From: Deltaproteobacteria bacterium RIFCSPLOWO2_12_FULL_60_19
GTDB lineage: Bacteria; Desulfobacterota; Binatia; UBA9968
Length of the DNA stretch: 64,000 bases
Assembly: GCA_001798595.1 (NCBI GenBank)
Contig: MGSS01000144.1
Coordinates: forward strand, 14,032 to 78,031
Direction of reading: 5' to 3'
The notes under the pieces were generated by a model. It made no database searches and had not been told where the DNA came from. It saw nothing but the letters and a program-made list of their open reading frames with translations. The position numbers were made by a program, and so were the translations under genes. Positions 10,311 to 36,735 of this stretch are shown piece after piece (within the stretch, counting starts at the first letter, position 1; every line of letters begins with the position of its first letter).

Positions 10311-10339
10311 GCGGCGTGGGCTGCGACGCGAGGTGAACC

Positions 10340-10777
10340 ATGAAAAAACGAGTGCTCTTCGTTTGCGTTCACAACAGCGCCCGCAGCCAAATGGCGGAGG
10401 CGTTTTTAAATCGGATGTGCGGCGACGTATTCGAGGCGGAAAGCGCCGGACTGGAGCCGGGGGCGCTCAACCTGCTGGCTGTCGAAGCGATGCGGGAAAT
10501 CGGAATCGACATCGGCGGGAACGGGACGCGCGGGGTGTCGGAGGTCATCGAGTCGGGCCAGAAATTCGATTGTGTTATAACGGTTTGCGACGAGAGCAGC
10601 GCCGAGCAATGCCCCGTTGTTCCCGGCGTCGCCGAGCGGCTACACTGGAATTTTCCCGACCCGGCTAAGTTTACGGGCACCTGGGAAGAAAGACTGGAGC
10701 AGACCAGAAACATCCGAGACGCGATTGAATCTAAGATCGAACAGTTTTGTCCGTCCGGCTGTCGAGCGGTGGCGTAG
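10340..10777 (+). CDS. arsC: Arsenate reductase (LMW-PTP/thioredoxin-coupled type)
   Basis: CVHNSARSQMAEA P-loop with downstream Cys residues. It is 145 aa. Confidence 0.8.
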   Translation: MKKRVLFVCVHNSARSQMAEAFLNRMCGDVFEAESAGLEPGALNLLAVEAMREIGIDIGGNGTRGVSEVIESGQKFDCVITVCDESSAEQCPVVPGVAERLHWNFPDPAKFTGTWEERLEQTRNIRDAIESKIEQFCPSGCRAVA

Positions 10778-12650
10778 GGACGCTTGAACTGCTCGCCTCA
10801 TTTTCCGCCGGCAGAAGAATTCGCACGGTGGTTCCTTTTTGCAAGCGGCTTTCGATCGCCAACGATCCTCCGTGGGCCTGAACGATATGCTTCACGATCG
10901 CTAATCCCAAGCCGGTTCCTCCGAGCTCGCGCGAGCGCGCCTTGTCCACGCGGTAGAAGCGCTCGGTCAGGCGGGGCAGCTCCTTTTCGGGAATGCCGCA
11001 GCCGGTGTCGGACACACTCAGCTCGACAAAGTGGGAATTGGGAGTTAGGGATTGAAAATTAGGGGTTCGGGATTCGGGAGTGGCCCCAATTCCTAATTCC
11101 CGATCCCTAATTCCACCCGACCGGGCCGCGATCGTGATGCTTCCCTTGTCGGTGTATTTGAGCGCGTTGTCGATCAGGTTGATGAGGAGTTGCTGCAGCC
11201 GGTCCGGATCTCCGAGAATAGGAGGCAACTCCGGCTCGATCTGCCGGAGCAGCGCAACGTCCTTCCGCTGCGCCTGATCCTGGAAAATTTCCAATACCTT
11301 GCCGATTAATTCCGCAGCCTGCAGCTTTTCTCTGGCGATTTGAATCTTTCCCGATTCGAGATCCGACAGAGTCAGCAAATCGTCGATGAGCCGGCCGAGC
11401 CTCTCGGAGTGGCGGTGGATGATGCCGAGAAAATGCTCCGCCTCCTTCGGATCCGCCGGCGGAGATCGAAGCAGGGTTTCGGCATAGCCCCGAATGGCGG
11501 TCAGCGGGGTGCGCAGCTCGTGAGACACGTTGGCGACGAAATCGGCGCGAACGGTTTCCAGCCGCTTGAGCTCCGTGACATCGTGAAGGACCAGGATGTA
11601 CCCGAGCGGCTTCTCATCCACGCCTCTCAGGGTCACTGCGTTGACATGGAACCACTTTCCTTCGTCTAAGCAGATATCTTTCGTAAAGCACGCCGTGGAG
11701 CAATCGCAGGCCAGAACCTCCGCCAGGAGTTTTTTCATTTCCGGATGACGCGACAACTCGACGAGCGAGGCGCCGTGGGGATCCGACTCCTCGGGGAGAT
11801 TGAACATCCTTTTGGCATTTTCATTGAGCAGGATCAGCCGCCCCCGGGTATCCACGACCAGAACGCCCTCGGTCATGCATCTGAGGATCGAATCGACCTT
11901 CTCCTTTTCCGCCGTTACGCCGGCGATCGTCTCCTGAATGCTGCGGCTCATCGCATGGAGATTGTGTTCCAGAATGCCGAGCTCGTCGGTCCTGCCGAGC
12001 AAGATCGGCTGCTGGGAAAAGCGACCTCGGGCGACGTTGTCGGAGAATTCCAGCATCCGTTTAATTCTTTGTTCTAAGCGATGGGAAACGAAAAAGGCTA
12101 CGAGCAGTCCCGCCGCCGAGAAGAGCAGCAGTCCGGCCAACATCGCGCGCCGCAAGGAGCTTTCCGCCGCCTCGATGGAGTCCAGAGGGACAGAGAGCCG
12201 GACGATCCATCTGCGACCGGCTTCTCGTAAAAGGACGGCCTGGTATAACATTTCATGCCGGACGGTGGCGCTGTAACGGATACTCGTTCCGCCGCCTTTG
12301 GATGCCGCATCCAGCACCTCCGGCCGCGTCCCGTGATTTTCCATCGTGACCGAAGGTTCGTCCGAGTCGCCCAGCACCTTGCCGCCCAGGTCGATAACGG
12401 TGATGCGAACTCCCAGATCCCGGCCCAGGTCGCGGCAGATTCGATCCAGCGCGGCTCCTTCGAGGCCTACGGGTAGCAAGCGCATCACGATCTTTGCTTC
12501 ATCGCGCATCTTAGCCGACAACGACGAGATGTGAAAATCCTTCACAATCGCCGTGGCGTAGAGATAAAAGAGGAGAAACAGAAGGAGAACGACGGCGAGA
12601 TAGGAGAGGAAGAGCCTGACGACGACTCTATTTTTCCAGGGCCTTTTCAT
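10731..12650 (-). CDS. phoR: Phosphate regulon sensor histidine kinase PhoR (TM + PAS + HisKA + HATPase)
   Basis: SHELRTPLTAI H-box and GGTGLGLAIV G-box. It sits downstream of phoB and is translationally overlapped with it. Confidence 0.8.
   Translation of the reverse strand: MKRPWKNRVVVRLFLSYLAVVLLLFLLFYLYATAIVKDFHISSLSAKMRDEAKIVMRLLPVGLEGAALDRICRDLGRDLGVRITVIDLGGKVLGDSDEPSVTMENHGTRPEVLDAASKGGGTSIRYSATVRHEMLYQAVLLREAGRRWIVRLSVPLDSIEAAESSLRRAMLAGLLLFSAAGLLVAFFVSHRLEQRIKRMLEFSDNVARGRFSQQPILLGRTDELGILEHNLHAMSRSIQETIAGVTAEKEKVDSILRCMTEGVLVVDTRGRLILLNENAKRMFNLPEESDPHGASLVELSRHPEMKKLLAEVLACDCSTACFTKDICLDEGKWFHVNAVTLRGVDEKPLGYILVLHDVTELKRLETVRADFVANVSHELRTPLTAIRGYAETLLRSPPADPKEAEHFLGIIHRHSERLGRLIDDLLTLSDLESGKIQIAREKLQAAELIGKVLEIFQDQAQRKDVALLRQIEPELPPILGDPDRLQQLLINLIDNALKYTDKGSITIAARSGGIRDRELGIGATPESRTPNFQSLTPNSHFVELSVSDTGCGIPEKELPRLTERFYRVDKARSRELGGTGLGLAIVKHIVQAHGGSLAIESRLQKGTTVRILLPAENEASSSSVPTPPLDSRTDKTVRS
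11030..11115. repeat. In-frame low-GC palindromic G-tract (TTAGGG/TTCGGG-like) insertion inside phoR
   Basis: GGGAATTGGGAGTTAGGGATTGAAAATTAGGGGTTCGGGATTCGGG followed by its approximate reverse complement CCCCAATTCCTAATTCCCGATCCCTAATTCC. It encodes an extra ~25-aa loop (IRDRELGIGATPESRTPNFQSLTPNS) between the N-box and G1-box regions. Confidence 0.5.
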
Positions 12651-13341
12651 CGAATTTGTAACCCACTCCCCGGACCGTGAGAACCCATTCGGGCTTGCGG
12701 TCGTTCTTTTCGATTGCCTTTCTCAGCCTGCGGATATGGACGTCCACGGTGCGGGAATCGACGAAGACCTCGCCTCCCCAAACCCGGTCGAGCAGTTGAT
12801 CCCGACTCAGGACCCTGCCGGGATTTTGGACCAGGAATCGGAGCAGCTCAAATTCCTTGAGCGTGAGGCGGACCGCTTTGCCTCTGACAAAAATCTCGTA
12901 AGTCGAGAAGTTGATCTTGAGGGGGCCCTTTTCATAGACCTCCGCTCCCGCGGCCGCGAACGAAGCCTCGCTCCTGCGCAGAATCGCTTTGACGCGCGCG
13001 ACCAGCTCCCTGGGGCTGAAGGGCTTGGTCAGATAATCGTCGGCGCCCATCTCCAATCCGACGACGCGGTCGGCCTCGCCCGCCTTCGCCGTCAGCATGA
13101 GGATCGGCAGCCGGGCGGTCTCCGGCCGCGCGCGCAGGCTGCGGCATAGCTCCAACCCCGACATTCCCGGCAGCATCAGGTCCAGAATCACCAGCTGAGG
13201 CTTTTCCCGCTGGAGCATCTTAAGCGCCTCTTCCCCGTCCTCGGCTTCGACGACCTGAAAGCGCTCTTGCGCCAAGTTATAATGGACGAGCTTCCGTATA
13301 TCGGGCTCGTCTTCGACCACTAGGATTTTCTTCGCAGCCAT
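12628..13341 (-). CDS. phoB: Phosphate regulon response regulator PhoB
   Basis: OmpR family, opening KILVVEDEPDIRKLV. It sits between phoU and phoR. Confidence 0.85.
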   Translation of the reverse strand: MAAKKILVVEDEPDIRKLVHYNLAQERFQVVEAEDGEEALKMLQREKPQLVILDLMLPGMSGLELCRSLRARPETARLPILMLTAKAGEADRVVGLEMGADDYLTKPFSPRELVARVKAILRRSEASFAAAGAEVYEKGPLKINFSTYEIFVRGKAVRLTLKEFELLRFLVQNPGRVLSRDQLLDRVWGGEVFVDSRTVDVHIRRLRKAIEKNDRKPEWVLTVRGVGYKFDEKALEK

Positions 13342-13354
13342 AACCGGGTTGGAT

Positions 13355-13430
13355 ACGGTTCAAAGGGGTCAAAATAGTTCAATAGGTTCAAAATGTTTTG
13401 AACGACTTGAACTTTTTGAACAGCGTCCGT
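13355..13430. promoter_or_regulatory. Array of GTTCAA/TTGAAC hexamers at ~9-bp periodicity, including a perfect 8+8 palindrome GTTCAAAAtGTTTTGAAC, in the phoU-phoB intergenic region
   Basis: In coding (minus) orientation it reads GTTCAAAAA-GTTCAAGTC-GTTCAAAAC-ATTTTGAAC-CTATTGAAC. It lies ~20-90 bp upstream of the phoB start. Confidence 0.4.
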
Positions 13431-13443
13431 CTTCGCATCCGCC

Positions 13444-14130
13444 CTAGATCGACTGCGGCAACTCTTTGAGATGGCGGATGCTCTTGCCTTTCACCATGAA
13501 GACGACCATCTCGGCGATATTGGTGGCGTGGTCGGCGATGCGTTCAAGATATTTTGAGATAAAGGAGATCTTCATCGCCCGATTGATCGTGTGGGGGTCC
13601 TCGATCATGAAGCTGACGGTTTCGCGGAAAACCTGGCTGTTGAGATCGTCCACCTCTTGATCGTCCTTGCAGACTTTCAAGGCTAGATTCGTGTCTTCGC
13701 GCACGAAGGCGTCGAGGCTTTCGTGAATCATCCGCTGCGAAATCCTCGCCATGCGGGGAATGTCGATGTAGGGCTTGAGCTGGGGCTCCGCATTAAGCTC
13801 TAAAGCTCGCTCGCAGATGTTGACGGCCATGTCGCCGATCCGCTCCAGATCGGTCGTGATCTTCAAAGCGGTGGTGATGAAACGCAAGTCCCGCGCCGCC
13901 GGCTGGTGCAGAGCGAGGAGCTGGATGCAGAGCTCGTCGATCTCCACGTCCAGGGTGTTCACTTCCTTGTCCCGTTCGATAATCGTTGCGGCCATATTGG
14001 AATCCCGGTCGACCAACGAGCTGACCGCTTTCTGAATCTGATCCTCCACCAATCCTCCCATGTAGAGGATGTCCTCGCGAAGCTTCTTCAGGTCTTCCTC
14101 GTATCTTTTGTCCGTGTGCTGGGTTAACAT
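13444..14130 (-). CDS. phoU: Phosphate signalling complex protein PhoU
   Basis: 228 aa with two PhoU repeats. Confidence 0.9.
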   Translation of the reverse strand: MLTQHTDKRYEEDLKKLREDILYMGGLVEDQIQKAVSSLVDRDSNMAATIIERDKEVNTLDVEIDELCIQLLALHQPAARDLRFITTALKITTDLERIGDMAVNICERALELNAEPQLKPYIDIPRMARISQRMIHESLDAFVREDTNLALKVCKDDQEVDDLNSQVFRETVSFMIEDPHTINRAMKISFISKYLERIADHATNIAEMVVFMVKGKSIRHLKELPQSI

Positions 14131-14139
14131 CTCTCCCCC

Positions 14140-14200
14140 TTTGAACGTCTCCCGCCGTTAAACCGGTCAAGCCGTTCAAAATGTTCAAATCGTTCAACTC
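14140..14200. promoter_or_regulatory. Second array of TTGAAC hexamers at 9-bp periodicity, in the pstB-phoU intergenic region
   Basis: In coding orientation it reads GTTGAACGA-TTTGAACAT-TTTGAACGG-CTTGACCGG, then GTTCAAAGGGGGGAGAG before the phoU ATG. Confidence 0.4.
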
Positions 14201-14201
14201 G

Positions 14202-14981
14202 TCATCCGAACCTGCCCGTGATGTAGTCCTCCGTCTGGCGTTTCTCCGGGTTGGTGAAGATCCTGCCCGTCTCGCCGAATTCTATCAATTCGCCGAGGTA
14301 GAAGAAAGCCGTGACGTCGGATACGCGCGCGGCCTGCTGCATGTTATGGGTCACGATCACAATCGTGAAGGTATGCTTGAGCTCGTGAATCAACTCCTCG
14401 ATCTTGGCCGTGGAGATGGGGTCGAGAGCGGAGCAGGGCTCATCCATGAGCAGGACCTCGGGCTCGACCGCCAAGGCGCGGGCGATGCAAAGGCGCTGTT
14501 GCTGTCCGCCGGAAAGGTCGGAGGCGCTCTTGTGCAAATTGTCCTTCACCTCGTCCCAGAGGGCGGCCCGCTTGAGATTGTTCTCCACCACCTCGTCCAG
14601 CCGGCTCCGGTTGTTGATGCCGACGATCCTCAAGCCATAGACGACATTTTCATAAATGCTCTTGGGAAACGGGTTCCACTTCTGAAAGATCATTCCCACG
14701 CGGCGGCGGAGATCGATGACGTCCGTCCCTGCGTCGTAGATGTCCCGGCCGTCGAGCTTGACGGAGCCTTTGATGGAGACGTTGGAAACGAGGTCGTTCA
14801 TCCGGTTCAGACAGCGGAGGAGTGTCGTCTTGCCGCAACCCGAAGGCCCGATGAACGCGGTTGCCTGCTTTCCGGGAATGTCCACGTTGACGGACTTGAG
14901 CGCCCGGACAGTTCCGTAATAAAAATCGAGATCCCGGACTTGGATGATGGGCTCGGATGGAAGTGTCATCGTCGCTACCAT
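14202..14981 (-). CDS. pstB: Phosphate ABC transporter ATP-binding protein PstB
   Basis: The listed 491-aa ORF is an artefactual N-terminal extension. The true start is [11 protein letters not shown] (ATG 14979-14981). Walker [10 protein letters not shown] and signature LSGGQQQR are present. Confidence 0.9.
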
Positions 14982-15895
14982 CGGATGCGCTTGCGAAAGC
15001 GGTAGCGCAGGTAGATGGCCAGCGCGTTCATAGCCAGAGTCATGACCATGAGGACAAGCCCTGTCGCCGCGGCGTTCAGATGAAATTCCTCCTGCGGGCG
15101 GGAAACCCAGTTGAACATCTGGATCGGCATCACGGTGAACGGAGACATGAGCCAGTCGAACGAAATGAAGGGGAATTCCGGTTTGACCGGGGAATCGGGA
15201 AGGAAGGCGATGAAGGTGAGGGCGCCGATGGTGATCAGCGGCGCCGTTTCTCCGATCGCCCGCGAGAGCGCGATGATGACTCCGGTGAGAATGCCCCCCG
15301 TCGAGTAAGGCAGGACGTGGTCCTTCACCATCTGCCACTTGGTTGCTCCGAGGGCATACGCCGCTTCGCGCATAATGCCGGGAACGGCCCGGATCGCTTC
15401 GCGGGTGGCGACGATGACGATGGGAAGAATCAGCAGCGCCAGGGTCAGCCCGGCGGTCAGGATACTGTGGCCGAGACGAAGCTGATACACGAACAGCCCC
15501 AGAGCCATAAGCCCGTAGACGATCGAAGGAACTCCCGCGAGATTGGCGATGTTGATTTCGATCAGCGCGGTCAGCCAGTTTTTCGGCGCATACTCCTCCA
15601 GATAAACTCCTGCGGCCACGCCCAGCGGAACGGCGGTCAGCGCGGTGACAAGCATAACGAGCGTGGTGCCCACCCATGCCGAGAGGATCCCCGCCTGCTC
15701 GGGGAAGCGCGAAGGGAAGGAGAGGAGAAACTGCCGGCTCAGCCGGCCCGCGCCATCGGTTGCCAGATCGATCATCAAAGCGAAAAGCGTGATCAAGCCG
15801 ATGAAAGTGGCCAGGAGTCCCAGCATCGCGAACGTCCGGTCGTAAAACTTGCGGCGGGCGGTCTTGTTATCCCGACTACTTTGATTCCGCTCCAT
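14975..15895 (-). CDS. pstA: Phosphate ABC transporter permease PstA
   Basis: 306 aa, 6 TM, with the permease EAA-like loop ([10 protein letters not shown]). Confidence 0.85.
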
Positions 15896-15896
15896 C

Positions 15897-16856
15897 TCAG
15901 TAAATCTCCCGGAATTTCTTGCGGAGCAGGTAGCCGGCGATGTTGAAGACGAGCGTCATCAGCATCAACGTCAAACCCGCGGCGAAGATGCTCTGATAGG
16001 CGACGCTTCCGTGGGGCAGGTCGCCCAAGCTCACCTGAACGATGTAAGCCGTGATGGTCGCCGCTCCCTGCATGGGATTCAGCGTGAGGTTGGGCTGCTG
16101 CCCGGCCGCGATGGCGACGACCATGGTCTCGCCGACGGCCCGCGAAAAGCCCAGGACATAAGCCGATGCGATGCCGGAAAAGGCGGACGGAACGAGCACC
16201 CGCAGGGCGGTCTGGAGACGGGTCGCGCCCATGGCATACGAGCCTTCTCGAATCTGCACCGGGACGGCTCTCATAGCGTCCTCACTCAGAGAGCTGACGT
16301 AGGGAATGATCATGATGCCGATCACGATGCCGGCCGAGAGCATGTTGAAGCCGGGAAGGTCCGGCAGAAGACGCTGCAACAGAGGAGTCACGAGGAGCAG
16401 AGCGAAATAACCGAAAACCACCGTCGGGACGGCGCTGAGCATCTCCAAGGCGGGCTTGATGATTTCGCGCACCCGGTGGCTTGCGTACTCGCTCAGGTAG
16501 ATGGCGATGACGGTGCCGAGCGGCAAGGCCACGAGCAGGGCGACCGCTGAAGTCACCACGGTTCCCGCCACCAGCGGCATGATGCCGTAGTGCGGATCGG
16601 CGAACAGCACTGTCCACTGGGTGTCCGTGAGAAACTCTACGACGGAGACATGGCTGAAAAAGGAGAAGGACTCATAGAGCAGAATCCCGACGATGCCCAC
16701 CGTGATCCCGATCGAGGAGAGGGCGGATAAAAAGAGCAGCGCCTCGACGACCCGCTCTCCCGGCCGGCGAGTCGAGCTACGAGCGGCGAATTGCCGAGTC
16801 GCCGCCGTGGCGTGTGCCGTTTCCGCGTGATTCATAGGTGTGAAGCAGGGCATCAT
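15897..16856 (-). CDS. pstC: Phosphate ABC transporter permease PstC
   Basis: 319 aa permease with [11 protein letters not shown] motif. Confidence 0.85.
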
Positions 16857-16890
16857 GGCGATGCCCTGCTTCGTTTCGATATTTCAGCCT

Positions 16891-17877
16891 TTAGAACTTG
16901 GCCTCGCGCTTGAGCAGCTCTTCAATCTTGATGCCCACCTGGGCCTCGCCTCCGAATACGGTCCCGATCTTGCCCTTCTGGAAATGCTCGAGTCCCAGCG
17001 TATAGGCGTTGGCGGGAAGGGCCACGTATTTTATCTGCCTTACGAGCTTCGCGGCGTTCTGCATATAGAACTCCACGAACTCTTTGACTTCGGGTTTTTC
17101 AGCAGCTTTCTTGCTCACGTAGATGAAGATCGGCCTTGATAGGGGCTGATACGTTCCATCTTCGACGGTTTTGGGGGAAGGCGGCACGACCTCTTTGCCG
17201 CCGTCGATCCCCACGGCCTTGAGCTTCTTTTGGTTCTCGACGTAATAGGCGAAGCCGAAATATCCGAGCGCGTTCTTGTCGTTGGCGATGCCCTGCACCA
17301 ATACGTTGTCGTCTTCACTGGCGGTGAAGTCGCCGCGGCTGGCCTTCGCCTTGCCCACGATCGCTTCGGTGAAATAATCGAACGTGCCGGAATCGGCGCC
17401 CGGACCGAAGAGCTTCAGAGGCGCGTTTGGCCAGGACGCTCGGACCTGGTTCCAGGTCGTGACCTTCCCCTGGGCGGCCGGCTCCCAGATTTTTTTCAGG
17501 TCCGCGACCGTCATGGACGAGACCCAATCGTTTTTGGGATTGACCATCACCGTCAAGGCGTCGAAGGCCACGGGCAGCTCGTAGTATTGAACGCTCGCCT
17601 GTTTACACGCCTCCATCTCTTGTTTAAGAATCGGCCGGGAGGCGTCGCTGATATCGGTCTCGCCCCGGCAGAACTTTTTGAAACCCCCGCCAGTCCCGGA
17701 GATTCCGACGGTCACCTTGACCTTTCCCTTTTTTGCTTTCTGGAACTCTTCAGCGACCGCCTCTGTGACCGGAAAGACGGTGCTGGAGCCGTCGATTTGG
17801 ACGATCTGGGCGCGGGCTTGAGCGCCCGTGAGGGATGCCATGAGAGCGAAAAACGTTACAAGTGCTTTGGTGTTCAT
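16891..17877 (-). CDS. pstS: Phosphate-binding protein PstS
   Basis: The probable true start is [21 protein letters not shown] (signal peptide). The upstream 'MEETE' codons of the listed ORF coincide with the RBS (GGAGGAAACTGA-ATG). Confidence 0.85.
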
Positions 17878-17908
17878 TTCAGTTTCCTCCATTTCTTTAC
17901 TCCTGCAT

Positions 17909-18121: not shown

Positions 18122-19345
18122 ATGAAAATCGACATCTGGAGATTTCTCGGCGCCGGCCGGTTTCCCGAAGAGTCCAAGAGGAAGCTCGGCGTCGTCGCTC
18201 TGCTCTATTTTATCCAGGGGAGCCCGGCGGCGATTTTGTGGGAGGTTTTGCCGGTCTATCTTCGCCTGCAGGGGATTTCTCTCGCCGCCATCGGCGGCCT
18301 CAGGCTGCTCGAGCTGCCGTATTCCTTGAAGGTTCTGTGGTCGCCGCTGATCCATCGCTACGGCGACCGCCGGGCGTGGGTGTTCGGCTGCATGATCGGC
18401 GTCGCGCTGGTCGTCGGCCTGCTGCCGCTCGCGGACGCCGCGCAGGGCGGCGCAATCCTGGCGGTCCTGGTGCTCGCCCTCACCGCGCTTTCAGCTACGC
18501 AAGATATTGCGATCGACTCCTACACGGTAGGCTTAGTCCGCCGCGACGAAGAGGGACCGGCCAACGGCGTGCGCGCCTCGGCCTATCGCGTCGCTCTGGT
18601 GACGATCGGCGGCGGCCTCGTGCTGCTCGCCACGGTCTTTCCGTGGAGCGCGCTCTTGGTGATGGCGGCTGTGGTGTTCGTACTGCTCGGCCTCGCGGCC
18701 TTTCGCGCGCCCCGGCTCGATCTCCCCGTAGAGGCGCGCGCCGAGTGGCTCGGCGGCTTTCTCAACTGGATCGGCACCTGGAACGCGCTGCCGCTGGTTC
18801 TTTTCGCTTTAACCTACAAGCTCGGAGAGTTCGCGATCGGTCCGATGGTGAAGCCGTTCTGGGTGGATCAGGGACGCTCGGTCTTCGAAATCGGACTTGT
18901 CCCGACGACCGCCGGCATCGTTCTCAGCGTCGCCGGCTCGCTGGCCGGCGGGGTGTTTATTTCCCGCTACGGAACCTTTTGCGGCATCTGGGCGCTGGGA
19001 CTGCTCCAGGCCGTATCGAATATCGGTTACGCCCTGGTCGCGTGGGGCGACCTTGGGCGCATCGGCCTATACGGCGCGTCCGTTTTTGAGTCGTTCACCG
19101 GCGGCCTTGGGACCGCGGCCTTTCTCGCCTTCTTGATGAACGTCTGCGAGAAGGAGCACGCTACCGTGCAATACGCTCTGCTGTCGTCGATCTTTGCGCT
19201 CAGCGGCCGGCTGGTGGGAGGCCTGAGCGGCCTGGGCGCGGAGAGATTCGGCTACGGGAATTATTTCGCGCTGACCTTTCTGGTTTCTCTCCCGGCGTTC
19301 ATTTTGCTGCCGTGGGTGAAAAAGTGGATACACGAAGCTCATTGA
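18122..19345 (+). CDS. MFS transporter, AmpG/muropeptide-permease-like
   Basis: ~408 aa, 12-14 TM. The start is set at MKIDIWRF (18122). Confidence 0.65.
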   Translation: MKIDIWRFLGAGRFPEESKRKLGVVALLYFIQGSPAAILWEVLPVYLRLQGISLAAIGGLRLLELPYSLKVLWSPLIHRYGDRRAWVFGCMIGVALVVGLLPLADAAQGGAILAVLVLALTALSATQDIAIDSYTVGLVRRDEEGPANGVRASAYRVALVTIGGGLVLLATVFPWSALLVMAAVVFVLLGLAAFRAPRLDLPVEARAEWLGGFLNWIGTWNALPLVLFALTYKLGEFAIGPMVKPFWVDQGRSVFEIGLVPTTAGIVLSVAGSLAGGVFISRYGTFCGIWALGLLQAVSNIGYALVAWGDLGRIGLYGASVFESFTGGLGTAAFLAFLMNVCEKEHATVQYALLSSIFALSGRLVGGLSGLGAERFGYGNYFALTFLVSLPAFILLPWVKKWIHEAH

Positions 19346-20279
19346 GCAGGGCCTTCCACGCCGCGCCCTCGTGCCTGGGATCGACGAGCGGGCGCAACCG
19401 GGCGCAGTGGGACTTGAGCGTGCGATAAAAGCCGGGATCGGATTCGGCTTTTCGGAGCAGACGCGCCAGCTCACGCGCGTTCCCAACAGAAAAATAGCCG
19501 GGGTAGTCCTCGCCAAGCGTTCCCATCAGGCCGGGTATTCTCGACGCGACCACAGGCACGGACGACGCCAGCGCTTCGCACAGCACGTTGGAGCTGCCTT
19601 CCATGTGCGAGGTGAGCGCCAGCAGGTGGCTTTGAGCCAGCGCCCGTCGCGCTTTCCAATGGGGCAGCTCGCCGATCCAGCGATAGCGCGGATTGCGCGC
19701 CGCCTCCGCCCGCGCGCGTTTTTCCATTTCATTGCTGAGCGCGCGCCCTATATGGATGACTTGGACGCGGGACGAGGCGGGAAGACGACGCGCGGCCAAA
19801 GCCGTGCGGAGAGGATCTTTTTCCAGACGCATGTGGCCAATGACGCAGACTCTGAATCCGTTGCGGCTCGAAGGCGCTTTGCCGGTCAGCAGGGGCGCAG
19901 ATTGGTAAATGACTCGTGTCTTGGGGCGAAAACGTTTCGGCAACTCGGTGACACCTTGTGCCTGGAGCACGATCAGGCGGGTTGCCCACTCCAGAGACTT
20001 TCGCGCATTCGGATTTTTTCGGATATCGCGGTAGAGGTCGGTGCCGGTCAGCGTGACGATGAGCGGCAACGCCGGATGCAATCGGCGGAACAATTTGATG
20101 GATAGGAAGCTGCGCCGCGCGTGCAGCGCGATCATGAGATCGCACGGCTCGCCGCCATAGCGTTCTTCGAGGATCACGCGGTGGCCGAGAGCCGCGAGGA
20201 TGCGCCGCCAGCGCAGCGCGGTGATGCTGTTGCCGTTGCGGGCGGTGACGGGATAGGGCGTGATAAGCCGGATCTTCAT
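19299..20279 (-). CDS. GT-B fold glycosyltransferase, SenB-like candidate selenosugar synthase
   Basis: 326 aa. It is translationally coupled (4-bp overlap) to the upstream EgtB-like gene. The glycosyltransferase C-terminal motif region reads EGSSNVLCEALASSVPVVASRIPG. Confidence 0.55.
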   Translation of the reverse strand: MKIRLITPYPVTARNGNSITALRWRRILAALGHRVILEERYGGEPCDLMIALHARRSFLSIKLFRRLHPALPLIVTLTGTDLYRDIRKNPNARKSLEWATRLIVLQAQGVTELPKRFRPKTRVIYQSAPLLTGKAPSSRNGFRVCVIGHMRLEKDPLRTALAARRLPASSRVQVIHIGRALSNEMEKRARAEAARNPRYRWIGELPHWKARRALAQSHLLALTSHMEGSSNVLCEALASSVPVVASRIPGLMGTLGEDYPGYFSVGNARELARLLRKAESDPGFYRTLKSHCARLRPLVDPRHEGAAWKALLNELRVSTFSPTAAK

Positions 20280-21667
20280 CGTGCGCAGGTGCGGAAGCCG
20301 GCCCAGACGTCGTTCCGGTCAGGCGTGTAAAAGTTGCGCCAGGTGTTGCGGATGAGACGCGCGCGCGTCGCCCAGCAGCCGCCTCGAAGAACTTTGTGCG
20401 TGCCGAACCAGGGCTCGGAATATTCTTTGTAAGGATCGGCGACGAATCCCGGATAAGGGCCGAAGTCCGTCGCCGTCCACTCCCAAACATTGCCGATCAT
20501 TTGACGGCAGCCCGAGGCGCTGTCGCCATCGGCGAGCGCGGCGACTTCAACCGATCCCAAGGCGCGACCGTCGAGATTTGCCCGCTCAGGCGAGGGCGCT
20601 TCGTCTCCCCAGGGAAAGAGCCGCTTTCGGCCGGTAGCGGGTTCCGCAGCCGCGGCCGTTTCCCATTCCGCCTCGGTGGGCAAGCGCCGCTTCGCCCATT
20701 TGCAGTACGCGTCCGCTTCGTACCAATTGACATGGATGACGGGAATATGTTCCCGCAGTGGAACATAGCCGTCGAAAACGCGCTGCGTCCAGCGGCCGCC
20801 GTCTCGCCGCCAGTAAACCGGACGCTCCGCTTTTGCCGCCCGCGCAACGGGCGCGGACGCTTGCGGTTTGCCGAAAAACTTGGAGAAAGATTGCTCAAGC
20901 GCGGGAGAGCCGCCGGATTCAAGCCAGCGCCGGCCGTCGTCGCTCCAGAATTCTCGCCGCCGGTAGCCGCCGTCGTCAACAAAAGCGGCAAACTCTCTAT
21001 TCGTCACCGGCGCGCGCGCGATCCGAAACGGCTTCAGCTCGACCGGATGCGCCCATTTTTCGTTGTCGAAGACAAAAGGAAAATCGCGCGTCGCCCCGAG
21101 CATAAACGAGCCGCCGGGAATCTCGACGTCGCCGGGCAGGGGACCGCCGCCGGTCTGAAATTGTTCCTGGGCCACGGCGGGTTTCGGTGGAGGATATCCC
21201 AGGGTCTGTCTGGTGTAAGTGATCGCCTCGGCATGCATATCCTCATGAAAGACGACCAGAAGAGGAAAGTAGAGTTCCTGCGCGCCGGGCTGCCGTGAAT
21301 ACAAACACTCCGCGACGCAATCTAAAACCGTAGCCATGTATTCGAACGTCTTCTCCCGCGACGGCAGCAGGAGGTCCCAGCGTGTGTCATGGGCGACGTC
21401 GGTCGAGTTATAGAGCGCGTCCGCGCCTTCGACGAGCGGCTTCTGCTTGTAGAGCCGGCGCAAGAGCCAGAACTCCTGCGTCCATGCGACGTGGCCGATC
21501 TCCCAGAGCGGCGGGTTGACGATGGCAAGCCGCGGCCCGATCATCTGCTCGTCGCTCAGGTCGGCGACCAGCTCCAGCGTGCGGCCGCGCGCTTCGCGCA
21601 GCATCTCGATAAGCTGGGAGGCGGAAGGCCCCAAGTTGTCCTGCGAATGTCGGCTCGCCCGCGCCAT
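20276..21667 (-). CDS. EgtB-family sulfoxide/selenoxide synthase (DinB_2 + FGE-sulfatase domains); SenA-like candidate
   Basis: 463 aa. The N-terminal DinB-like metal-binding domain contains NPPLWEIGHVAWTQEFW. The C-terminal FGE-like domain contains GNVWEWTATDF...VLRGGCWAT. Confidence 0.7.
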   Translation of the reverse strand: MARASRHSQDNLGPSASQLIEMLREARGRTLELVADLSDEQMIGPRLAIVNPPLWEIGHVAWTQEFWLLRRLYKQKPLVEGADALYNSTDVAHDTRWDLLLPSREKTFEYMATVLDCVAECLYSRQPGAQELYFPLLVVFHEDMHAEAITYTRQTLGYPPPKPAVAQEQFQTGGGPLPGDVEIPGGSFMLGATRDFPFVFDNEKWAHPVELKPFRIARAPVTNREFAAFVDDGGYRRREFWSDDGRRWLESGGSPALEQSFSKFFGKPQASAPVARAAKAERPVYWRRDGGRWTQRVFDGYVPLREHIPVIHVNWYEADAYCKWAKRRLPTEAEWETAAAAEPATGRKRLFPWGDEAPSPERANLDGRALGSVEVAALADGDSASGCRQMIGNVWEWTATDFGPYPGFVADPYKEYSEPWFGTHKVLRGGCWATRARLIRNTWRNFYTPDRNDVWAGFRTCAR

Positions 21668-21920
21668 AGGATCAATTCTTACGCTGCTTAGGTTCGAGGA
21701 TCAAGAAGGGAGCGATTCTGTTTTTCTGGAAAAGCTAGGTTCGTCACTCCCGCAAAAGCGGAAGGCCAGGTCGTAAGACTCTGGATTCCCGTTTCAGCCT
21801 CAGGCTGATCCGTCCGAAGCCCAGTGGCGGATCCACGGGAATGACAGTTAAAGTGCAAACTTCGCGACCGCGTCCAATGAACAAGTCTCGAACGGTATAT
21901 CGGAGAAGGGAAAGGGCTGC

Positions 21921-22739
21921 TCAAGCCGCCAAAAATTCCGCGGTGAGTCGCTCAAACTCCAACGCCGCGTCCCACTGAGCGAGATGTTTGCAGCGGTCGA
22001 GCAGATGCAGGTTGAGAGTGGGGAATCGCTCCTTGAGAAGGGCGGCCCGCGCGGCTGCTGAGCCTCGGTCCTGTTTGCCGTAGAGCATAAGCAGCGGCAC
22101 CGGCAGCTGGTGCAGCCGCTCCCAGATCGGGACATTGTCTTTTCTGCCGCCGCTCCTCGGGGCCTTGGCCCGCTCTAAGAAAGCTTGAAAATTTTTGCCT
22201 ACGCTCATCCGGTGGCGTTTTTCGAAAACTTCGGCGGTGATCAGCGAGTGATTGAAGAGATTCTGCTCCAATAGCGCGCGGGTCTCCGCCGGAGTCGGCT
22301 CCGAGGCGCCTCCCTCTTCGCCCTCGCCGGGGCCGCCCTTGCCGCCTTCGGGCAGCGGCGGCAGCACGCTGCCGGTGGCGAGGACGACGACTTTGCCGAT
22401 CCGATCGGTGTGATCGAAGGCGAGGCCTACCGCCATGCCGCCGGCTTGCGAGTGGCCGACGAGATGCGCTTTGCGGATTCCTAGCGTATCCATAAACTGG
22501 AGGATGAAACGGCGCCGGTAAGCCACGGAATAGTCCTTCGGGTTGTCGGTCAGGCCGAATCCGGGCTGGTCGAAGGCGACGGCTCTGAGACGGTGGCTCG
22601 CAAGCGGGGCGAGATTGCGCTCCCAGACATCGGCGGAGGAGCCGAGCGACGCGCCGTGAAGCAGCAAGACTTCGGGGCCGCTTCCTTCTTCGAGGTAGCG
22701 TGTTTTCAACCCATCGACTTTAATAAGTCTCTCAGCCAT
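21921..22739 (-). CDS. Alpha/beta-hydrolase fold protein
   Basis: The GHSQAG nucleophile elbow and HGASLGSS oxyanion region are present. Confidence 0.75.
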   Translation of the reverse strand: MAERLIKVDGLKTRYLEEGSGPEVLLLHGASLGSSADVWERNLAPLASHRLRAVAFDQPGFGLTDNPKDYSVAYRRRFILQFMDTLGIRKAHLVGHSQAGGMAVGLAFDHTDRIGKVVVLATGSVLPPLPEGGKGGPGEGEEGGASEPTPAETRALLEQNLFNHSLITAEVFEKRHRMSVGKNFQAFLERAKAPRSGGRKDNVPIWERLHQLPVPLLMLYGKQDRGSAAARAALLKERFPTLNLHLLDRCKHLAQWDAALEFERLTAEFLAA

Positions 22740-22764: not shown

Positions 22765-23571
22765 TTACGCGTCCGAGACGTCGATCAAGACTCCGTCAGG
22801 ATCGGCGAGATGATATTTGCCGAAGGGACAACTGGCCTGGAACAGCTTCAGCCTGGCTGCCCCTTCGGGTCCGCCGCCCACCGGGCTGGGCGACAACCTT
22901 GGATTTCGTCCGATCAAGTTCTCCAGGTCCTTCTTGAACCCCTCTACGCTCTCGACCTTGAAACCGATATGTTCCGGCGCGGGCCGCTCGATCCCAGATC
23001 CCTGATAATCGTTGATGTTCCAGGGCATGACGATGAGGGTCACCCGGCCGTCGGACAAATAAGAATTAGGGTCCCCCGCGGGTTTTTCCTGAGGCCGCAG
23101 CTCGAACACGTCAACGTAAAATTGCGCCAGCGTCTCCGGCATGACCGTTCTCAGTCCGAAATGATGGATGGTGCGGTCCTGCTTCCAATCCCCGTCTTCG
23201 TAGACGTCTCGCCTGTTTTCCATTCCCTTCTGTGAAAGATCGAAGACGTTTCCCGCCGGATCGTGCGTGCTCAAGCCGGCAAACGGTCTGTTGCCGGGGC
23301 GCTTGAGCACGTTGACCGCCGGGTACCTGGCTTTCATTCGCCCCAATACCGTCTCGACATCGTCCACCTCGAAGCCGAAATGGTCGAAGCCCGCCTGCCG
23401 CCCGGCCCGGCGCGGGTTAATGTTCATGCCGACGTATCCGTCGCCGACCACGACGGCGCTTTCGGGTTTCGCGTTCGGCGAAGTTCTCAAGCGAAATAAA
23501 GCTTCATAGAAGCGCCCCATGAGCGCATAATTTTCGCTGGCAATCGCCATGTGCTTGATCTGTGCAAACAT
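22765..23571 (-). CDS. VOC-family (glyoxalase/bleomycin-resistance/extradiol-dioxygenase-like) two-domain protein
   Basis: Two beta-alpha-beta-beta-beta modules (HFGFEVDD..., HIGFKVESVE...). Confidence 0.7.
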   Translation of the reverse strand: MFAQIKHMAIASENYALMGRFYEALFRLRTSPNAKPESAVVVGDGYVGMNINPRRAGRQAGFDHFGFEVDDVETVLGRMKARYPAVNVLKRPGNRPFAGLSTHDPAGNVFDLSQKGMENRRDVYEDGDWKQDRTIHHFGLRTVMPETLAQFYVDVFELRPQEKPAGDPNSYLSDGRVTLIVMPWNINDYQGSGIERPAPEHIGFKVESVEGFKKDLENLIGRNPRLSPSPVGGGPEGAARLKLFQASCPFGKYHLADPDGVLIDVSDA

Positions 23572-23617: not shown

Positions 23618-24766
23618 TCAGACGCTTCCTTTCGTCAAGCTCTTTTCTAGCAGGTCCATCCAGGGCCGCAATTCTTTAGCCCAGGGCTCGTGCTGGCGCT
23701 GCGCCGCGTAGCAGAAGGCGGCGGCGAAGGGAAAGCGCTGCGCGCGGCTGACGCGCAAGCCGCAGGTCTTATCCTTCCGCCGGTTGATACCCTCGCAGAA
23801 TTCACGAATCGCCCGCCAGTAGGGAAGAGGAGTTTCCCCGAAGCGCTCCCGGATGATCCGCTCCCAGCTCTGTTCGGGATCGTAAGCCGCGGGGTGCGCC
23901 GCGTAGTCGAAGCAGGTGGCGAGCGGAAGGAAGCTCAACGATTCCTGCAGCAGCGGGTTATTGAGGTAGCCATAGACGGCCTCCGGCAGGCGCGCGTCGC
24001 GCCCGGTGAGCGGGCTCAAGTGTATCTCTTCTTTCATGGAAAGGTCGTTGACCGGATAGTTGTCCCACAGGATGAGACGGCGCTTCAGCCGTTCGGCGAT
24101 CTTGCGAGCGTGGGACAGGCTGATCTCTTTCGCCACCACGCGCGCGCCGGTCCAGAAACAGGCGACGGAGGCTGGAAGGTATTCCGCCAGAGTTTCGAGG
24201 AAGGCGGGTTCGAACCTGCCGAACATACGGGCGAGAAGCGGATCGTCCGTGTAGTAGGAGGGACAGATCCACCATTCCACGTCGCGCCAGGCGGAGGGCT
24301 GCCGGTCGATGACGCTTGTCAGCCATGTGCCCTCAGCTTGCGCCAGGCTGTCCTTAAATAGTGTTCGGTCGCGCGCCAGTTGCAGGCGTGATGGAATATC
24401 GTCGAAGAGAATCGCGAAAGTCCGCACCCCGGCGTCGTAGAAGCGCCGCGCCTTTTCGAGCAGAATGCGGACCGGTTGATCGTCGCTGAAGGTAAGTCCT
24501 TTCCCAGGATGGAAGCCGTAAACAAAGTCGATCTTGCAGGCCTCTGCCGCGCAAATCAGACCAACAAGCTCGTTCCATTGATCCTTGGGGTAGGGGAGCC
24601 GCCATTTTTCCCGGTGGTAGGGGTCGTCTTTGGGCGCGTACAAGTAAGTGTTCATGCCGCGCGCCGCGCCGAATTCGAAGACGGCCTTGCGGTGAGCCAT
24701 GCTCCAGGGCGGGCCGAAGAATCCTTCGACGATGCCCCGGCGTTCAAAGGTGAGATTGGGATTCAC
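23618..24766 (-). CDS. GH84-family beta-N-acetylglucosaminidase (O-GlcNAcase-like), cytoplasmic
   Basis: GIVEGFFGPPWS N-terminal signature, FAILFDDIP catalytic Asp-Asp, and WDNYPVND motif. No signal peptide. Confidence 0.7.
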   Translation of the reverse strand: MNPNLTFERRGIVEGFFGPPWSMAHRKAVFEFGAARGMNTYLYAPKDDPYHREKWRLPYPKDQWNELVGLICAAEACKIDFVYGFHPGKGLTFSDDQPVRILLEKARRFYDAGVRTFAILFDDIPSRLQLARDRTLFKDSLAQAEGTWLTSVIDRQPSAWRDVEWWICPSYYTDDPLLARMFGRFEPAFLETLAEYLPASVACFWTGARVVAKEISLSHARKIAERLKRRLILWDNYPVNDLSMKEEIHLSPLTGRDARLPEAVYGYLNNPLLQESLSFLPLATCFDYAAHPAAYDPEQSWERIIRERFGETPLPYWRAIREFCEGINRRKDKTCGLRVSRAQRFPFAAAFCYAAQRQHEPWAKELRPWMDLLEKSLTKGSV

Positions 24767-24916: not shown

Positions 24917-25540
24917 ATGCTGCTATTTCTCAAAGGCTTTGCTATCGGGCTCATGGTGGCCGTGCCGGTCGGACCGATCGGCTTGTTATGCGTCAACCGC
25001 GCGCTGTTCAAAGGAGCGGCCTACGGCTTGCTCTCCGGCCTGGGTGTCGCCACGGCCGACGCCATCGCCGCCGGCATCGCGGTTTTGGGCTTGACGCTGG
25101 TTTCGGGTTTTCTGCTCGAGCAGCAACTATGGCTTCGTCTGATCGGCGGCTTTTTCTTGTGCTATCTTGGGGTCAAAATCTTCAGCACGACGCCGATGGA
25201 GCGGGCCGCGTCGGCTAAGGATAACAGTTTGGTCGGCGCCTATGTCTCGACGTTCCTTCTCACCTTCAGCAATCCGCTGACCATTCTGTCCTTCGTGGCA
25301 ATCTACGCCGGTTGGGGGGTCGAAGAACTCAGCGGGCGCTATTTCGCGGCGCTGGAACTGACCGCCGGGGTGTTCGCCGGCTCTTCGGCGTGGTGGTTCG
25401 GTCTTTGCGGCGGGATGCCGGCGTTCCGGCTGATGTTCAGCCATCAGGGGCTTGAATGGATCCACAAAGTGTCGGGGGCGCTCATCGCCGGCTTTGGGTT
25501 CGTCGTTCTGCTCAGCCTGCTGCAGCGGGGCGGAGGATAG
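24917..25540 (+). CDS. LysE/RhtB-family amino-acid exporter
   Basis: 207 aa, 6 TM, with the family-typical N-terminus (GFAIGLMVAVPVGPIG). Confidence 0.8.
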   Translation: MLLFLKGFAIGLMVAVPVGPIGLLCVNRALFKGAAYGLLSGLGVATADAIAAGIAVLGLTLVSGFLLEQQLWLRLIGGFFLCYLGVKIFSTTPMERAASAKDNSLVGAYVSTFLLTFSNPLTILSFVAIYAGWGVEELSGRYFAALELTAGVFAGSSAWWFGLCGGMPAFRLMFSHQGLEWIHKVSGALIAGFGFVVLLSLLQRGGG

Positions 25541-25549: not shown

Positions 25550-26527
25550 GTGAGTGTGAATGCCCTGGCATCAGAGCGACCCGGCAGTTTGGCCACTGCA
25601 ATTCCGACAACGCTCAATCTTTGCCTCGCGGCGGCACACCTGCTGGCCAGTCTCTATCAGTTGTTTATTCTGCCTCTTTTTCTCTTGCCCGCGAGCTCGT
25701 GGTGGCTCTTGACGCTGGTGCCGCTGGCCGCGCTTAACAATCCTTTCTGGAGCCTGATCCACGAGGCGATTCACGACATGTTCCATCCCTCTCGCCGCGT
25801 GAGCCGGACAGCGGGCCGGACGCTGGGAATCTTCTTCGGCGCGCCGTTTCTGGTATTGCGCTTGAGCCATCTGCTCCACCACAAGCTCAACCGCACGCCG
25901 GTGGAAGCGACCGAGCCGTACGACCCGGCGAAAACATCCAAGGCGCGCGCGGCTTGCGGATACTTCTTCCAGGTTCTAGGCGGGCTGTATCTATTGGAGT
26001 TTATCAGCCCGTGGCTCTTCTTCTTGTTCCGCCGCACGCTTCACGCAATGGAGCGCAAGCGTTTTTCCGGCAACGACCTACCGGGCCACTTGATGAGAGG
26101 ATTGATGCGCGACGAAGCGATCACGGAGATGCGAATCGACGGCGCGCTGATTCTCGTTCTGTTCGCGCTCAGCGCGCTCAGCTACGGCGCCTACTGGCCG
26201 TGGCTGGTCGCCGCGCTCCTCGCGCGCGCTTTTCTCATTTCTTTTCTCGACAACGTCTATCACTACGGAACGCCGATCAACGACATTTTTTACGCCCGAA
26301 ATCTCTTTCTGTCGCCGCCGCTTTCCGCAGGGCTGCTCTATTTCAACCTGCACGGCATCCATCACAAAAATCCCTCCATCCCCTGGATCGGGCTTCCCGA
26401 CGCATTTCGCAAACAGGAGGCGGTGTTCGAGGGGACCTATTTTACCGCCGCGCTCGACCAGTTGGCCGGGCCGATTCCGTTATCCGAGCTTCCCGGCGCC
26501 GCGGCAGCCAGTGGCGGCCCAGCTTAA
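25550..26527 (+). CDS. Membrane fatty-acid desaturase family protein
   Basis: Three His boxes: HEAIHD, HLLHHK, HGIHH. Confidence 0.8.
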   Translation: MSVNALASERPGSLATAIPTTLNLCLAAAHLLASLYQLFILPLFLLPASSWWLLTLVPLAALNNPFWSLIHEAIHDMFHPSRRVSRTAGRTLGIFFGAPFLVLRLSHLLHHKLNRTPVEATEPYDPAKTSKARAACGYFFQVLGGLYLLEFISPWLFFLFRRTLHAMERKRFSGNDLPGHLMRGLMRDEAITEMRIDGALILVLFALSALSYGAYWPWLVAALLARAFLISFLDNVYHYGTPINDIFYARNLFLSPPLSAGLLYFNLHGIHHKNPSIPWIGLPDAFRKQEAVFEGTYFTAALDQLAGPIPLSELPGAAAASGGPA

Positions 26528-34983: not shown

Positions 34984-35049
34984 GTAACGGTTTGAACATT
35001 CGGCTTGTGTTTTTCATGACGCTGCTGTCCTTTCCGCCCATTTTAGGCA

Positions 35050-36162: not shown

Positions 36163-36190
36163 AGCAGCGGGTTGAATCGTGTACCGTGCC

Positions 36191-36267: not shown

Positions 36268-36300
36268 CGCAAGGAGCAGAGCGTCAATTGAGAGGTTGCT

Positions 36301-36702: not shown

Positions 36703-36735
36703 CAGGCCGTTTCTAAATCCGTGAAATTTTTTGAA

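Follow-up and report, generated by a model that had tools for sequence, protein, structure and literature searches.

Selenoneine is among the few known selenium-containing small molecules, and genes for its biosynthesis have been described in the sen clusters of Variovorax paradoxus and Amycolatopsis palatopharyngis (Kayrouz et al. 2022), with solved structures of SenA (8k5i/8ryz) and SenB (8jjq/8fbx). Two further systems are related. In ovs, OvsA (Halomonas utahensis/Marinobacter; 8u41, 8u42; Kayrouz et al. 2024) partners with SenB, and the ovs genes are scattered round the chromosome in some genomes. In egtABCDE, the cluster for ergothioneine, the related enzyme is type I EgtB (EgtB-I; M. 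thermoresistibile, 4x8b). Here, we analyzed a stretch of 64,000 nucleotides (nt) of contig MGSS01000144.1 (referred to as the window) from Deltaproteobacteria bacterium RIFCSPLOWO2_12_FULL_60_19, in which a gene for an EgtB-family protein is directly followed by a glycosyltransferase gene. Judged by sequence, the two genes very likely encode the selenoneine synthase pair SenA/SenB of a Binatia-type soil or sediment bacterium. The explanation that we favor overall, and consider probable, is that they are orthologues of senA and senB, encoding the C-Se bond-forming enzymes of selenoneine biosynthesis, and belong to a clade-specific cluster that lacks selD and is linked to a GH84 gene.

If the window enzymes act like those of V. 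paradoxus, SenB would use selenophosphate and UDP-GlcNAc (GlcNAc, N-acetylglucosamine), and hydrolysis of the Se-P bond (by K154 in this protein) would yield 1-seleno-GlcNAc. SenA, a non-haem iron enzyme, would then join this selenosugar to C2 of hercynine in an O2-dependent reaction, and the selenoxide formed would eliminate spontaneously, giving selenoneine and 2-acetamidoglucal.

The putative SenA-SenB pair

The two genes and their junction are located as follows (ORF, open reading frame; aa, amino acids; HMM, hidden Markov model).

20276..21667, minus strand: senA, 463-aa ORF with DinB_2 and FGE domains, assigned by SenA HMM and motif
19299..20279, minus strand: senB, 326-aa ORF for a GT-B glycosyltransferase, assigned by SenB HMM and residues
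20276..20279, minus strand: 4-bp ATGA stop-start overlap of senA and senB, read directly from the sequence

At the junction (...GCA CGA TGA AGA TCC...), the TGA stop codon of senA lies within an ATGA that is shared with the ATG of senB. Translation of senA could begin at M1 or at M22, since the nearest homologue at NCBI is called 20 aa shorter; the conclusions are the same in both cases. Pfam recognized DinB_2 (38.9 bits) and FGE-sulfatase (183 bits) domains in the 463-aa protein and Glycos_transf_1/Glyco_trans_1_4 domains in the 326-aa protein. The ORFs, the junction and the Pfam results all agree with an earlier reading made from the letters alone (the sequence-only reading), which had described an EgtB-family gene coupled to a GT-B gene by a 4-bp overlap.

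That reading had also named the pair as a candidate senA/senB locus and suggested HMM or phylogenetic placement of the first protein and a test of the second against SenB models, and scoring with curated profiles bore out the proposal. The 463-aa protein scored 511.3 bits against the SenA profile (NCBIfam NF041186; residues 16-462 aligned to model positions 5-382), above the equivalog cut-off of 420, whereas it remained below the cut-offs of the EgtB profile TIGR03440 (330.1 bits, cut-off 360) and of the OvoA profile (131 bits, cut-off 400). The 326-aa protein reached 405 bits over residues 3-313 with the SenB profile (NCBIfam TIGR04348; cut-off 300), and the next GT4 family scored 95.8 bits. 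Its score with the solved V. paradoxus SenB (8jjq/8fbx) was 224 bits. The V. paradoxus and A. palatopharyngis genes fall into the same NCBIfam equivalogs and have the same adjacent senA-senB arrangement. The senA-senB pair is in itself ordinary, and both of its genes would by now receive their names from the automated annotation at NCBI.

The window SenA was aligned to reference sequences rebuilt from HMMER alignments, and the 14 positions of the composite motif were extracted. They read NEHHRHMHYYNFYR in the window protein, NEHHRHMHYYNFFR in V. paradoxus SenA, NEHHRHMHYMQAYR in OvsA, and SDHRRHQHYYNWDR in EgtB-I; the motif NEHHRHMHYYNFYR was identical in all 120 closest database homologues. 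The window protein fits the composite SenA motif xNEH--HRHxHYYN(F/Y)(F/Y)R (bioRxiv 10.1101/2024.04.10.588772, Kayrouz et al. 2024) and matches V. paradoxus SenA at these positions, with Y instead of F as the last aromatic residue, both of which the definition allows. Residues H59, H141, and H145 are the predicted iron ligands and Y413 is the predicted catalytic Tyr, all aligned with the reference residues. The hercynine site is predicted to consist of Y416/N445/F446 and the selenosugar site of N51/E56/H93/R96/Y447/R451. By motif, curated HMM, and genomic context, the 463-aa protein is a predicted SenA.

These data bear on the possibility that the window encodes a sulfur-specific EgtB beside an unrelated GT4 enzyme, for example one acting on the cell envelope, and that their adjacency is coincidental. 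The TIGR03440 score is substantial, M. thermoresistibile EgtB was the third-best match among solved structures (255 bits), and the glycosyltransferase domains are of the generic Glycos_transf_1 type. Furthermore, the window protein shares with EgtB-I the DinB_2 and FGE domains, the three-His iron site, the catalytic Tyr, the N/aromatic pair of the hercynine site, and 41% sequence identity. However, its EgtB score lies below the cut-off and its SenA score well above, and it departs from the EgtB-I motif (xSDH--RRHQHYYNWDR) at 6 of the 14 positions. The changes from EgtB-I replace S and D by N and E, R by H, and D by Y, mostly at positions for the thiol or selenol donor, in addition to Q by M and W by F. 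No egtA, egtC or egtE is present at the locus, and the absence of the latter two ergothioneine partners from the cluster had been observed in the sequence-only reading. The enzyme is instead paired with a glycosyltransferase that obtained 405 bits on the SenB equivalog and at most 96 on any other GT4 family, and the ATGA overlap couples both genes. Their association is also recurrent. We examined 41 loci from species-representative genomes that extend 5 kb or more to either side of senA and cover many phyla; 37 of them encode a SenB homologue within 5 kb of the SenA homologue, which argues against a chance pairing. On the curated cut-offs and the motif, the reading as EgtB with a generic GT4 was rejected, and we regard it as extremely improbable.

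A second alternative, which the sequence-only reading had not considered, is a selenoxide synthase of the OvsA type. Such an enzyme would act on free histidine and selenylate its C5 (ovoselenol pathway), and this would explain why no egtD was found in the ~84 kb around the pair. Among solved structures, OvsA gave the two best matches over the full length (349.5 and 339.6 bits), ahead of M. thermoresistibile EgtB and V. paradoxus SenA (239 bits). In a neighbor-joining tree of 80 fetched homologues and the references, OvsA branched from inside the SenA-motif radiation, as described previously (bioRxiv 10.1101/2024.04.10.588772). The fold, the iron triad, the catalytic Tyr, and the residues of the selenosugar site are common to the window protein and OvsA (340-350 bits). 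However, the residues that set histidine versus hercynine use are of the SenA type (Y416/N445/F446), and the window protein therefore departs from the OvsA motif xNEH--HRHxHYMQAYR (M401/Q430/A431 in OvsA; bioRxiv 10.1101/2024.04.10.588772, Kayrouz et al. 2024). The replacements M401Y/Q430N/A431F turn OvsA into a hercynine-using, C2-selenylating enzyme, i.e., confer SenA activity (bioRxiv 10.1101/2024.04.10.588772), and the higher-scoring of the two OvsA entries, 8ux5, is itself an engineered OvsA-YNF variant with SenA activity. The order of the bit scores is explained by loop content, since a 48-aa segment (window protein aa 344-391) is kept in EgtB-I, OvsA, and most SenA-type proteins but was lost in V. 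paradoxus SenA and its Burkholderiales relatives. Over aligned columns, identity was 44.5% to SenA, compared with 41.3% to OvsA and 41.2% to EgtB. Moreover, the clusters of relatives contain a true egtD, no methyltransferase (ovsM) domain was present among the genes called within 10 kb, and known OvsA proteins come almost exclusively from aquatic gammaproteobacteria, unlike the Binatia-type source of the window. The OvsA reading was rejected on the specificity triad, the loop content and the egtD of relatives, and its probability appears to be very small.

The assignment of SenB is supported at the residue level. In the V. paradoxus enzyme, N20, T23, and E231 serve the sugar donor, T83 and T85 form the selenophosphate pocket together with N20, and the H58-D86 dyad is nearby; further residues are R155, K158, which is involved in Se-P cleavage, and E239, which with T23 and E231 contacts the sugar/UDP (PMC10891094). 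The equivalent residues N17, T20, H53, T78, T80, D81, R151, K154 (corresponding to K158), E227, and E235 are conserved in the window SenB, so that catalytic and substrate residues are the same. Hercynine is the implied substrate of the pair. Among 79 homologues of SenB, N20, H58, T85, D86, R155, K158, E231, and E239 were invariant, whereas T23 and T83 varied in a minority.

Database relatives of the predicted SenA number more than 8,000. The 120 closest share 65-87% identity, are 431-511 aa long and originate mostly from soil and sediment metagenomes; those with names are metagenome-assembled genomes (MAGs) of "Candidatus Binatia" or "Deltaproteobacteria." Close homologues (66-71% identity) in Binatia MAGs carry the NCBI label "selenoneine synthase SenA." Among genome records, GCA_041483675.1 comes closest (86% identity), and the same contig is also present in the European Nucleotide Archive assembly ERZ4903185. 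Homologue loci are labeled L001, L002, etc. below. In the comparison with L002, which is 86% identical, the ratio of nonsynonymous to synonymous substitution rates (dN/dS) was 0.20 for senA and 0.22 for senB at a dS of ~0.38. Both genes have thus been under purifying selection since the window and L002 split, which argues for continued use of the pathway.

selD and egtD in the window and its relatives

The sequence-only reading had stated that neither egtD nor selD is nearby, and this was confirmed over a wider region. In tblastn searches of the window with EgtD of the relative L003 and with Escherichia coli SelD as queries, neither gene was found, the best E values being 0.24 for EgtD and 1.5 for SelD. 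The SelD query served as its own positive control, since it recovered SelD, with 33-51% identity, from 17 other loci. Contigs with identical terminal proteins extend the view by ~10 kb past each window end, and this additional sequence contained no AIRS (SelD-type) and no PF10017 (EgtD-type) gene. Pfam scans of the remaining large window ORFs revealed nothing related to selenium, and the window contains no tRNA-Sec, its sole tRNA being tRNA-Ser(GGA).

An unlinked selD is not peculiar, because it is the majority state. Among the 41 genome loci, SenB was encoded within 5 kb of senA in 37, SelD in 8, and EgtD in 7. Similarly, both egtB and selD were reported within 5 kb of 827 of 2,353 TIGR04348 genes, and egtD was co-localized in "a small subset" (Kayrouz et al. 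2022). The clusters of the window's relatives resemble that subset in containing egtD. Under the favored explanation, selenophosphate would be supplied through a selD and hercynine through an egtD that are encoded elsewhere in the genome.

Several observations nevertheless weigh against the assignment as a selenoneine locus. Neither selD nor egtD was found in the ~84 kb around senA-senB, and the described pathway cannot run without both. The canonical senA-senB-senC arrangement is absent in that no selD homologue is co-localized. SelD was likewise encoded in 0 of 46 clade loci (266 kb surveyed) and in 0 of 13, indicating that the entire clade relies on selenophosphate from an unlinked source, in contrast to the clusters from which the pathway was discovered. 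The window SenA is just 44.5% identical to the characterized V. paradoxus enzyme and has loops that the latter is without, namely, the 48-aa loop and a clade-specific 30-aa insertion (aa 251-280, window 20828-20917; SGGSPxLExSFSKFF...). This insertion occurs only in the sub-clade of the window SenA (window, L002, L003, and L005-L008) and in no other SenA-type proteins, OvsA or EgtB. In SenB, the literal EGGAHV sugar-donor motif, which was defined on beta-proteobacterial SenB, reads EGSSNV, with E, the first G, and V kept. However, its His position is occupied by N in 76 of the 79 SenB homologues, and EGGAHV is therefore a beta-proteobacterial feature rather than a family requirement. Finally, the enzymes of the clade are known from sequence alone.

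Relatives of the window locus provide an indication of where egtD was once located. The upstream methyltransferase of relatives passes the EgtD equivalog (292.7 and 298.4 bits; cut-off 290.9), and egtD was found upstream in 8 of the 13 loci of the GH84 subfamily described below that have at least 4 kb of upstream sequence. At the exact egtD position of relatives L003, L094, L097, L099, L100, L103, and L131, the window carries a block with two IS200-like Y1_Tnp (RAYT-type) transposase genes (27767-28753 and 31822-32682, both on the minus strand), which flank substrate-binding-protein genes, a 131-aa LigB-family ORF that is maybe a fragment, and an ornithine-cyclodeaminase gene. The position of this block suggests that egtD was probably displaced from the cluster in this lineage by a rearrangement beside the IS200-like transposase genes. 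L002 also is without linked egtD.

The same block and the absence of selD and egtD from ~84 kb are what would be expected of an incomplete remnant, in which egtD has been displaced and selD is missing, so that the pathway would be non-functional here or would yield the selenosugar only. We consider such decay improbable: neither ORF is disrupted, every catalytic residue is present, the translational coupling has been kept, and dN/dS has stayed at ~0.2 since the split from L002, itself without egtD, although a dS of ~0.38 represents ample time for decay.

The GH84-linked cluster and its possible role

The genes around the putative senA-senB pair are listed below.

18122..19345, plus strand: AmpG-like MFS transporter, 407 aa as called (ORF and L001 gene call; the longest ORF starts at 18062)
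21668..21920, minus strand: intergenic region upstream of senA, 253 nt (from the sequence)
21921..22739, minus strand: alpha/beta-hydrolase, 272 aa (Pfam Abhydrolase_1/6)
22765..23571, minus strand: two-domain VOC/glyoxalase-fold protein, 268 aa (Pfam Glyoxalase)
23618..24766, minus strand: GH84 beta-N-acetylglucosaminidase, 382 aa, cytoplasmic, catalytic domain alone (Pfam NAGidase, PF07555, 278.5 bits)
24917..25540, plus strand: LysE/RhtB-family exporter, 207 aa (Pfam PF01810 in L001, weak NCBIfam RhtB-type matches, synteny)
25550..26527, plus strand: membrane FA_desaturase-family protein, 325 aa (Pfam PF00487 in L001, synteny; no informative NCBIfam match)

Relatives with 73% and 86% identity have the layout LysE, FA-desaturase-like, GH84 NAGidase, VOC, alpha/beta-hydrolase, senA, senB, convergent AmpG-like MFS, and pst. 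The LysE exporter gene is divergent from the GH84 gene and conserved in the clade cluster; the FA_desaturase-like gene is co-oriented with it and lies between egtD and LysE in relatives. The MFS gene converges on senB, with 3' ends that overlap by 47 nt (19299-19345), and is conserved beside senB across the clade, with 67-93% identity in L001-L008, L012, L064, L079, and numerous loci from metagenomes. Its product scored 254 bits with the NCBIfam AmpG subfamily, below the cut-off of 350. All NCBIfam matches of the hydrolase were below threshold (HsaD, 131 bits; cut-off 400). The VOC protein, whose gene sits between GH84 and senA in the sub-lineage of the window, shows the strongest conservation in the cluster, with 91-93% identity in L002, L003, L092, L098, and L127 (SenA, 73-86%) and a dN/dS of 0.08-0.10. 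In this sub-lineage, where the VOC and hydrolase genes separate GH84 from senA, the 253-nt gap probably holds the senAB promoter. It contained no convincing sigma-70 match on the minus strand, and scans of the region 17.8-25.6 kb gave no Rfam family at an E value of ≤1 and no informative promoter or terminator signal.

Two observations concern individual proteins of the cluster. The VOC protein and the adjacent alpha/beta-hydrolase resemble an extradiol dioxygenase/hydrolase pair. Many relatives encode, between LysE and GH84, an FGE-sulfatase-domain protein of ~268 aa (L003:5665-6477, L006:6817-7620, L008:2232-3038, and others), which has a hydrophobic, signal-peptide-like N terminus and shares 26-35% identity with SenA over the C-terminal half of the latter; the window does not encode it.

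The association of GH84 with senA extends beyond close relatives. Divergent genome loci, in which SenA is 54-64% identical, retain the order GH84-senA-senB, and the distance from the GH84 stop codon to the start of the SenA alignment, as an approximation of the senA start, was -46 to +114 nt in L008, L012, L015, and L022 (the ORFs of the high-GC loci L015 and L022 being obtained by extraction anchored on high-scoring segment pairs). In L012, which lies on a contig of 3.6 Mb, the three genes are kept with unrelated flanks, and L015 and L022 are without the MFS gene. These GH84 proteins were aligned, and a search of the metagenome collection with the alignment yielded 80 loci in two clearly separate groups, one of 46 loci (56-73% identity) and one of 34 (no more than 40%). 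In the former subfamily, 14 loci have 3.5 kb or more of downstream sequence, and 11 of these carry senA there; senB follows at 10 of the 13 loci that have 4.5 kb or more, as compared with neither gene in any of the 34 more distant loci. Across the collections there were 32 units of GH84 and senA, all of them co-directional: GH84 was directly adjacent to senA in 21, the hydrolase gene lay between them in 10, and the VOC gene was also present in 4; in 3 of the 32 the hydrolase gene was upstream of GH84. The link between GH84 and senA is thus reciprocal, and the cluster of the clade reads [egtD] - desaturase-like and LysE (divergent) - GH84 - [VOC] - [alpha/beta-hydrolase] - senA - senB - convergent AmpG-like MFS, with bracketed genes variably present and without selD. 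The sen clusters of V. paradoxus and A. palatopharyngis differ in having senC/selD and in being without the GH84, hydrolase, VOC, MFS, and LysE genes. We found no description of this selD-less, GH84-linked variant in the literature searched, and it represents a modest new twist.

Apart from these units, the contig Ga0111538_10000384 (L113/L114) contains a subfamily GH84 gene (63% identity) near a divergently oriented gene for a SenB-like glycosyltransferase (43%), without SenA (L114:2684-7128). The locus also holds an ArsR-rhodanese fusion protein and a fatty-acid hydroxylase, and it could be a selenosugar- or thiosugar-only module.

The GH84 protein has the catalytic pair D122-D123 in LFDDIPS, which is invariant in the GH84 alignment, a WDNYPVND motif, and no signal peptide. 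Its closest solved structure is the OGA homologue of Thermobaculum terrenum (5diy, 223.6 bits), and with 190 bits it stays far from the cut-off of the NCBIfam GlcNAcase equivalog (1000). The Asp-Asp pair and the sugar-binding motifs are those of bacterial cytoplasmic GH84 enzymes (T. terrenum 5diy, C. perfringens NagJ, and B. thetaiotaomicron BT_4395), and the T. terrenum and O. granulosus enzymes likewise are without a signal peptide. Unlike the known bacterial GH84 enzymes, the window protein belongs to a distinct subfamily (56-73% identity within, at most 40% to the next), is encoded together with senA-senB, and consists of the catalytic domain alone.

Considering synteny and chemistry, we lean slightly towards a function of GH84 within the selenoneine pathway. 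A candidate substrate is the hercynyl-SeGlcNAc selenoether, a documented reduced shunt product that is formed when a reductant intercepts the selenoxide. GH84 may hydrolyze the Se-glycosidic bond of this compound to selenoneine and GlcNAc, and such a substrate-assisted reaction is plausible because imidazole-selenolate is a good leaving group. Alternatively, GH84 may hydrate or salvage the eliminated 2-acetamidoglucal. GH20 hexosaminidases reportedly hydrate glycals (Lai and Withers 1994). Release of 2-acetamidoglucal by selenoxide elimination is documented (bioRxiv 10.1101/2024.04.10.588772), and GH84 OGA cleaves activated thioglycosides according to the work of Macauley et al. (2005) as cited in PMC10636738. 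In contrast, human OGA does not hydrolyze Cys-S-GlcNAc (PMC10636738), which argues against a pathway role, as do the three subfamily GH84 loci without senA (L114, L120, and L121). The literature searched contained nothing that links GH84 to selenoneine or SenA or sen genes to Binatia, and nothing on enzymatic hydration of 2-acetamidoglucal. The specific proposal that GH84 is a dedicated Se-glycosidase and/or 2-acetamidoglucal hydratase of a selD-less sen variant is put forward tentatively, as an idea that is rather unlikely to hold in this precise form.

The AmpG-like neighbor also speaks against a role of GH84 in the pathway. AmpG and a cytoplasmic N-acetylglucosaminidase are a classical recycling pair, and GH84, the hydrolase, and the MFS transporter could be unrelated neighbors of a real senA-senB pair, with GH84 and the permease serving the recycling of muropeptides or GlcNAc from peptidoglycan. 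The transporter is closest to AmpG muropeptide permeases, three subfamily GH84 loci are without senA, and synteny among close relatives covers the entire region, pst operon included, so that some of the linkage is simply inherited. However, GH84-senA-senB is kept with other flanks in L012 and without the MFS gene in L015 and L022. GH84 adjoins senA and points in the same direction, while the MFS gene is convergent and its product falls below the AmpG cut-off. Distant GH84 loci have neither senAB nor this transporter, and in L114 the subfamily GH84 occurs near the SenB-like glycosyltransferase without SenA and without the transporter. We judge independent recycling functions to be unlikely on balance, while giving them appreciable weight.

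A further alternative dispenses with selenium. A thiosugar would be coupled to hercynine and GH84 would supply the missing bond cleavage, which would be needed because sulfoxides do not eliminate spontaneously; this would constitute a new route to ergothioneine. The absence of SelD from the clade loci and the frequent presence of egtD are compatible with such a route, as are the tight and specific linkage of GH84 to senA and the absence of egtB, egtC, and egtE from the cluster. In addition, thioglucose is accepted by SenA, albeit as a poor substrate, and the stable sulfoxide that builds up in this case has to be processed further. However, the selenophosphate residues of SenB and the motif positions of SenA are the same as in selD-linked loci, and we know of no biological thiophosphate donor. 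Since most senAB loci, in all phyla, have neither a linked selD nor GH84, the absence of selD needs no special explanation. A sulfur pathway is thus very improbable, and selenoneine remains the favored product of the locus.

Other genes of the window and significance

Several other regions of the window were annotated. On the plus strand, positions 9216-10777 hold a gene for an SBF (PF01758)-family transporter and one for a low-molecular-weight phosphatase, possibly related to arsenate. Beside them, phoR-phoB-phoU-pstBACS occupies 10731-17892 on the minus strand; the MFS gene directly borders the pst operon, as it does in close relatives. Two minus-strand ORFs of 639 aa (35014-36933) and 542 aa (37000-38628), located downstream of a Kelch/PKD-repeat gene (32839-34983), had no Pfam match. 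The ORFs at 46774-47511 (minus strand) are probably not real genes, having a third-position GC of 0.38-0.41 compared with ~0.75 elsewhere. A PrkA-DUF444-SpoVR triad at 54524-59186 (minus strand) was recognized from the Pfam annotation of the identical contig L085.

With hundreds of metagenome homologues at 65-87% identity, SenA and SenB are widespread in Binatia-type soil and sediment bacteria, in an organization that comprises egtD, GH84, a hydrolase, and two transporters and never selD. The discovery of the pathway required selD in the cluster, and mining centered on selD is blind to selD-less arrangements such as this one. If GH84 is unrelated to the pathway, the locus is one more correctly predictable senAB pair. 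If it does act on a Se-GlcNAc conjugate or on the glycal, the supposedly enzyme-free last step would gain an enzymatic assistant in some lineages. This would be the first glycoside hydrolase, and an enzymatic step of bond cleavage or repair, in the biosynthesis of a selenometabolite, and it would be useful for the engineering of selenoneine production and for predicting which soil bacteria produce selenometabolites.

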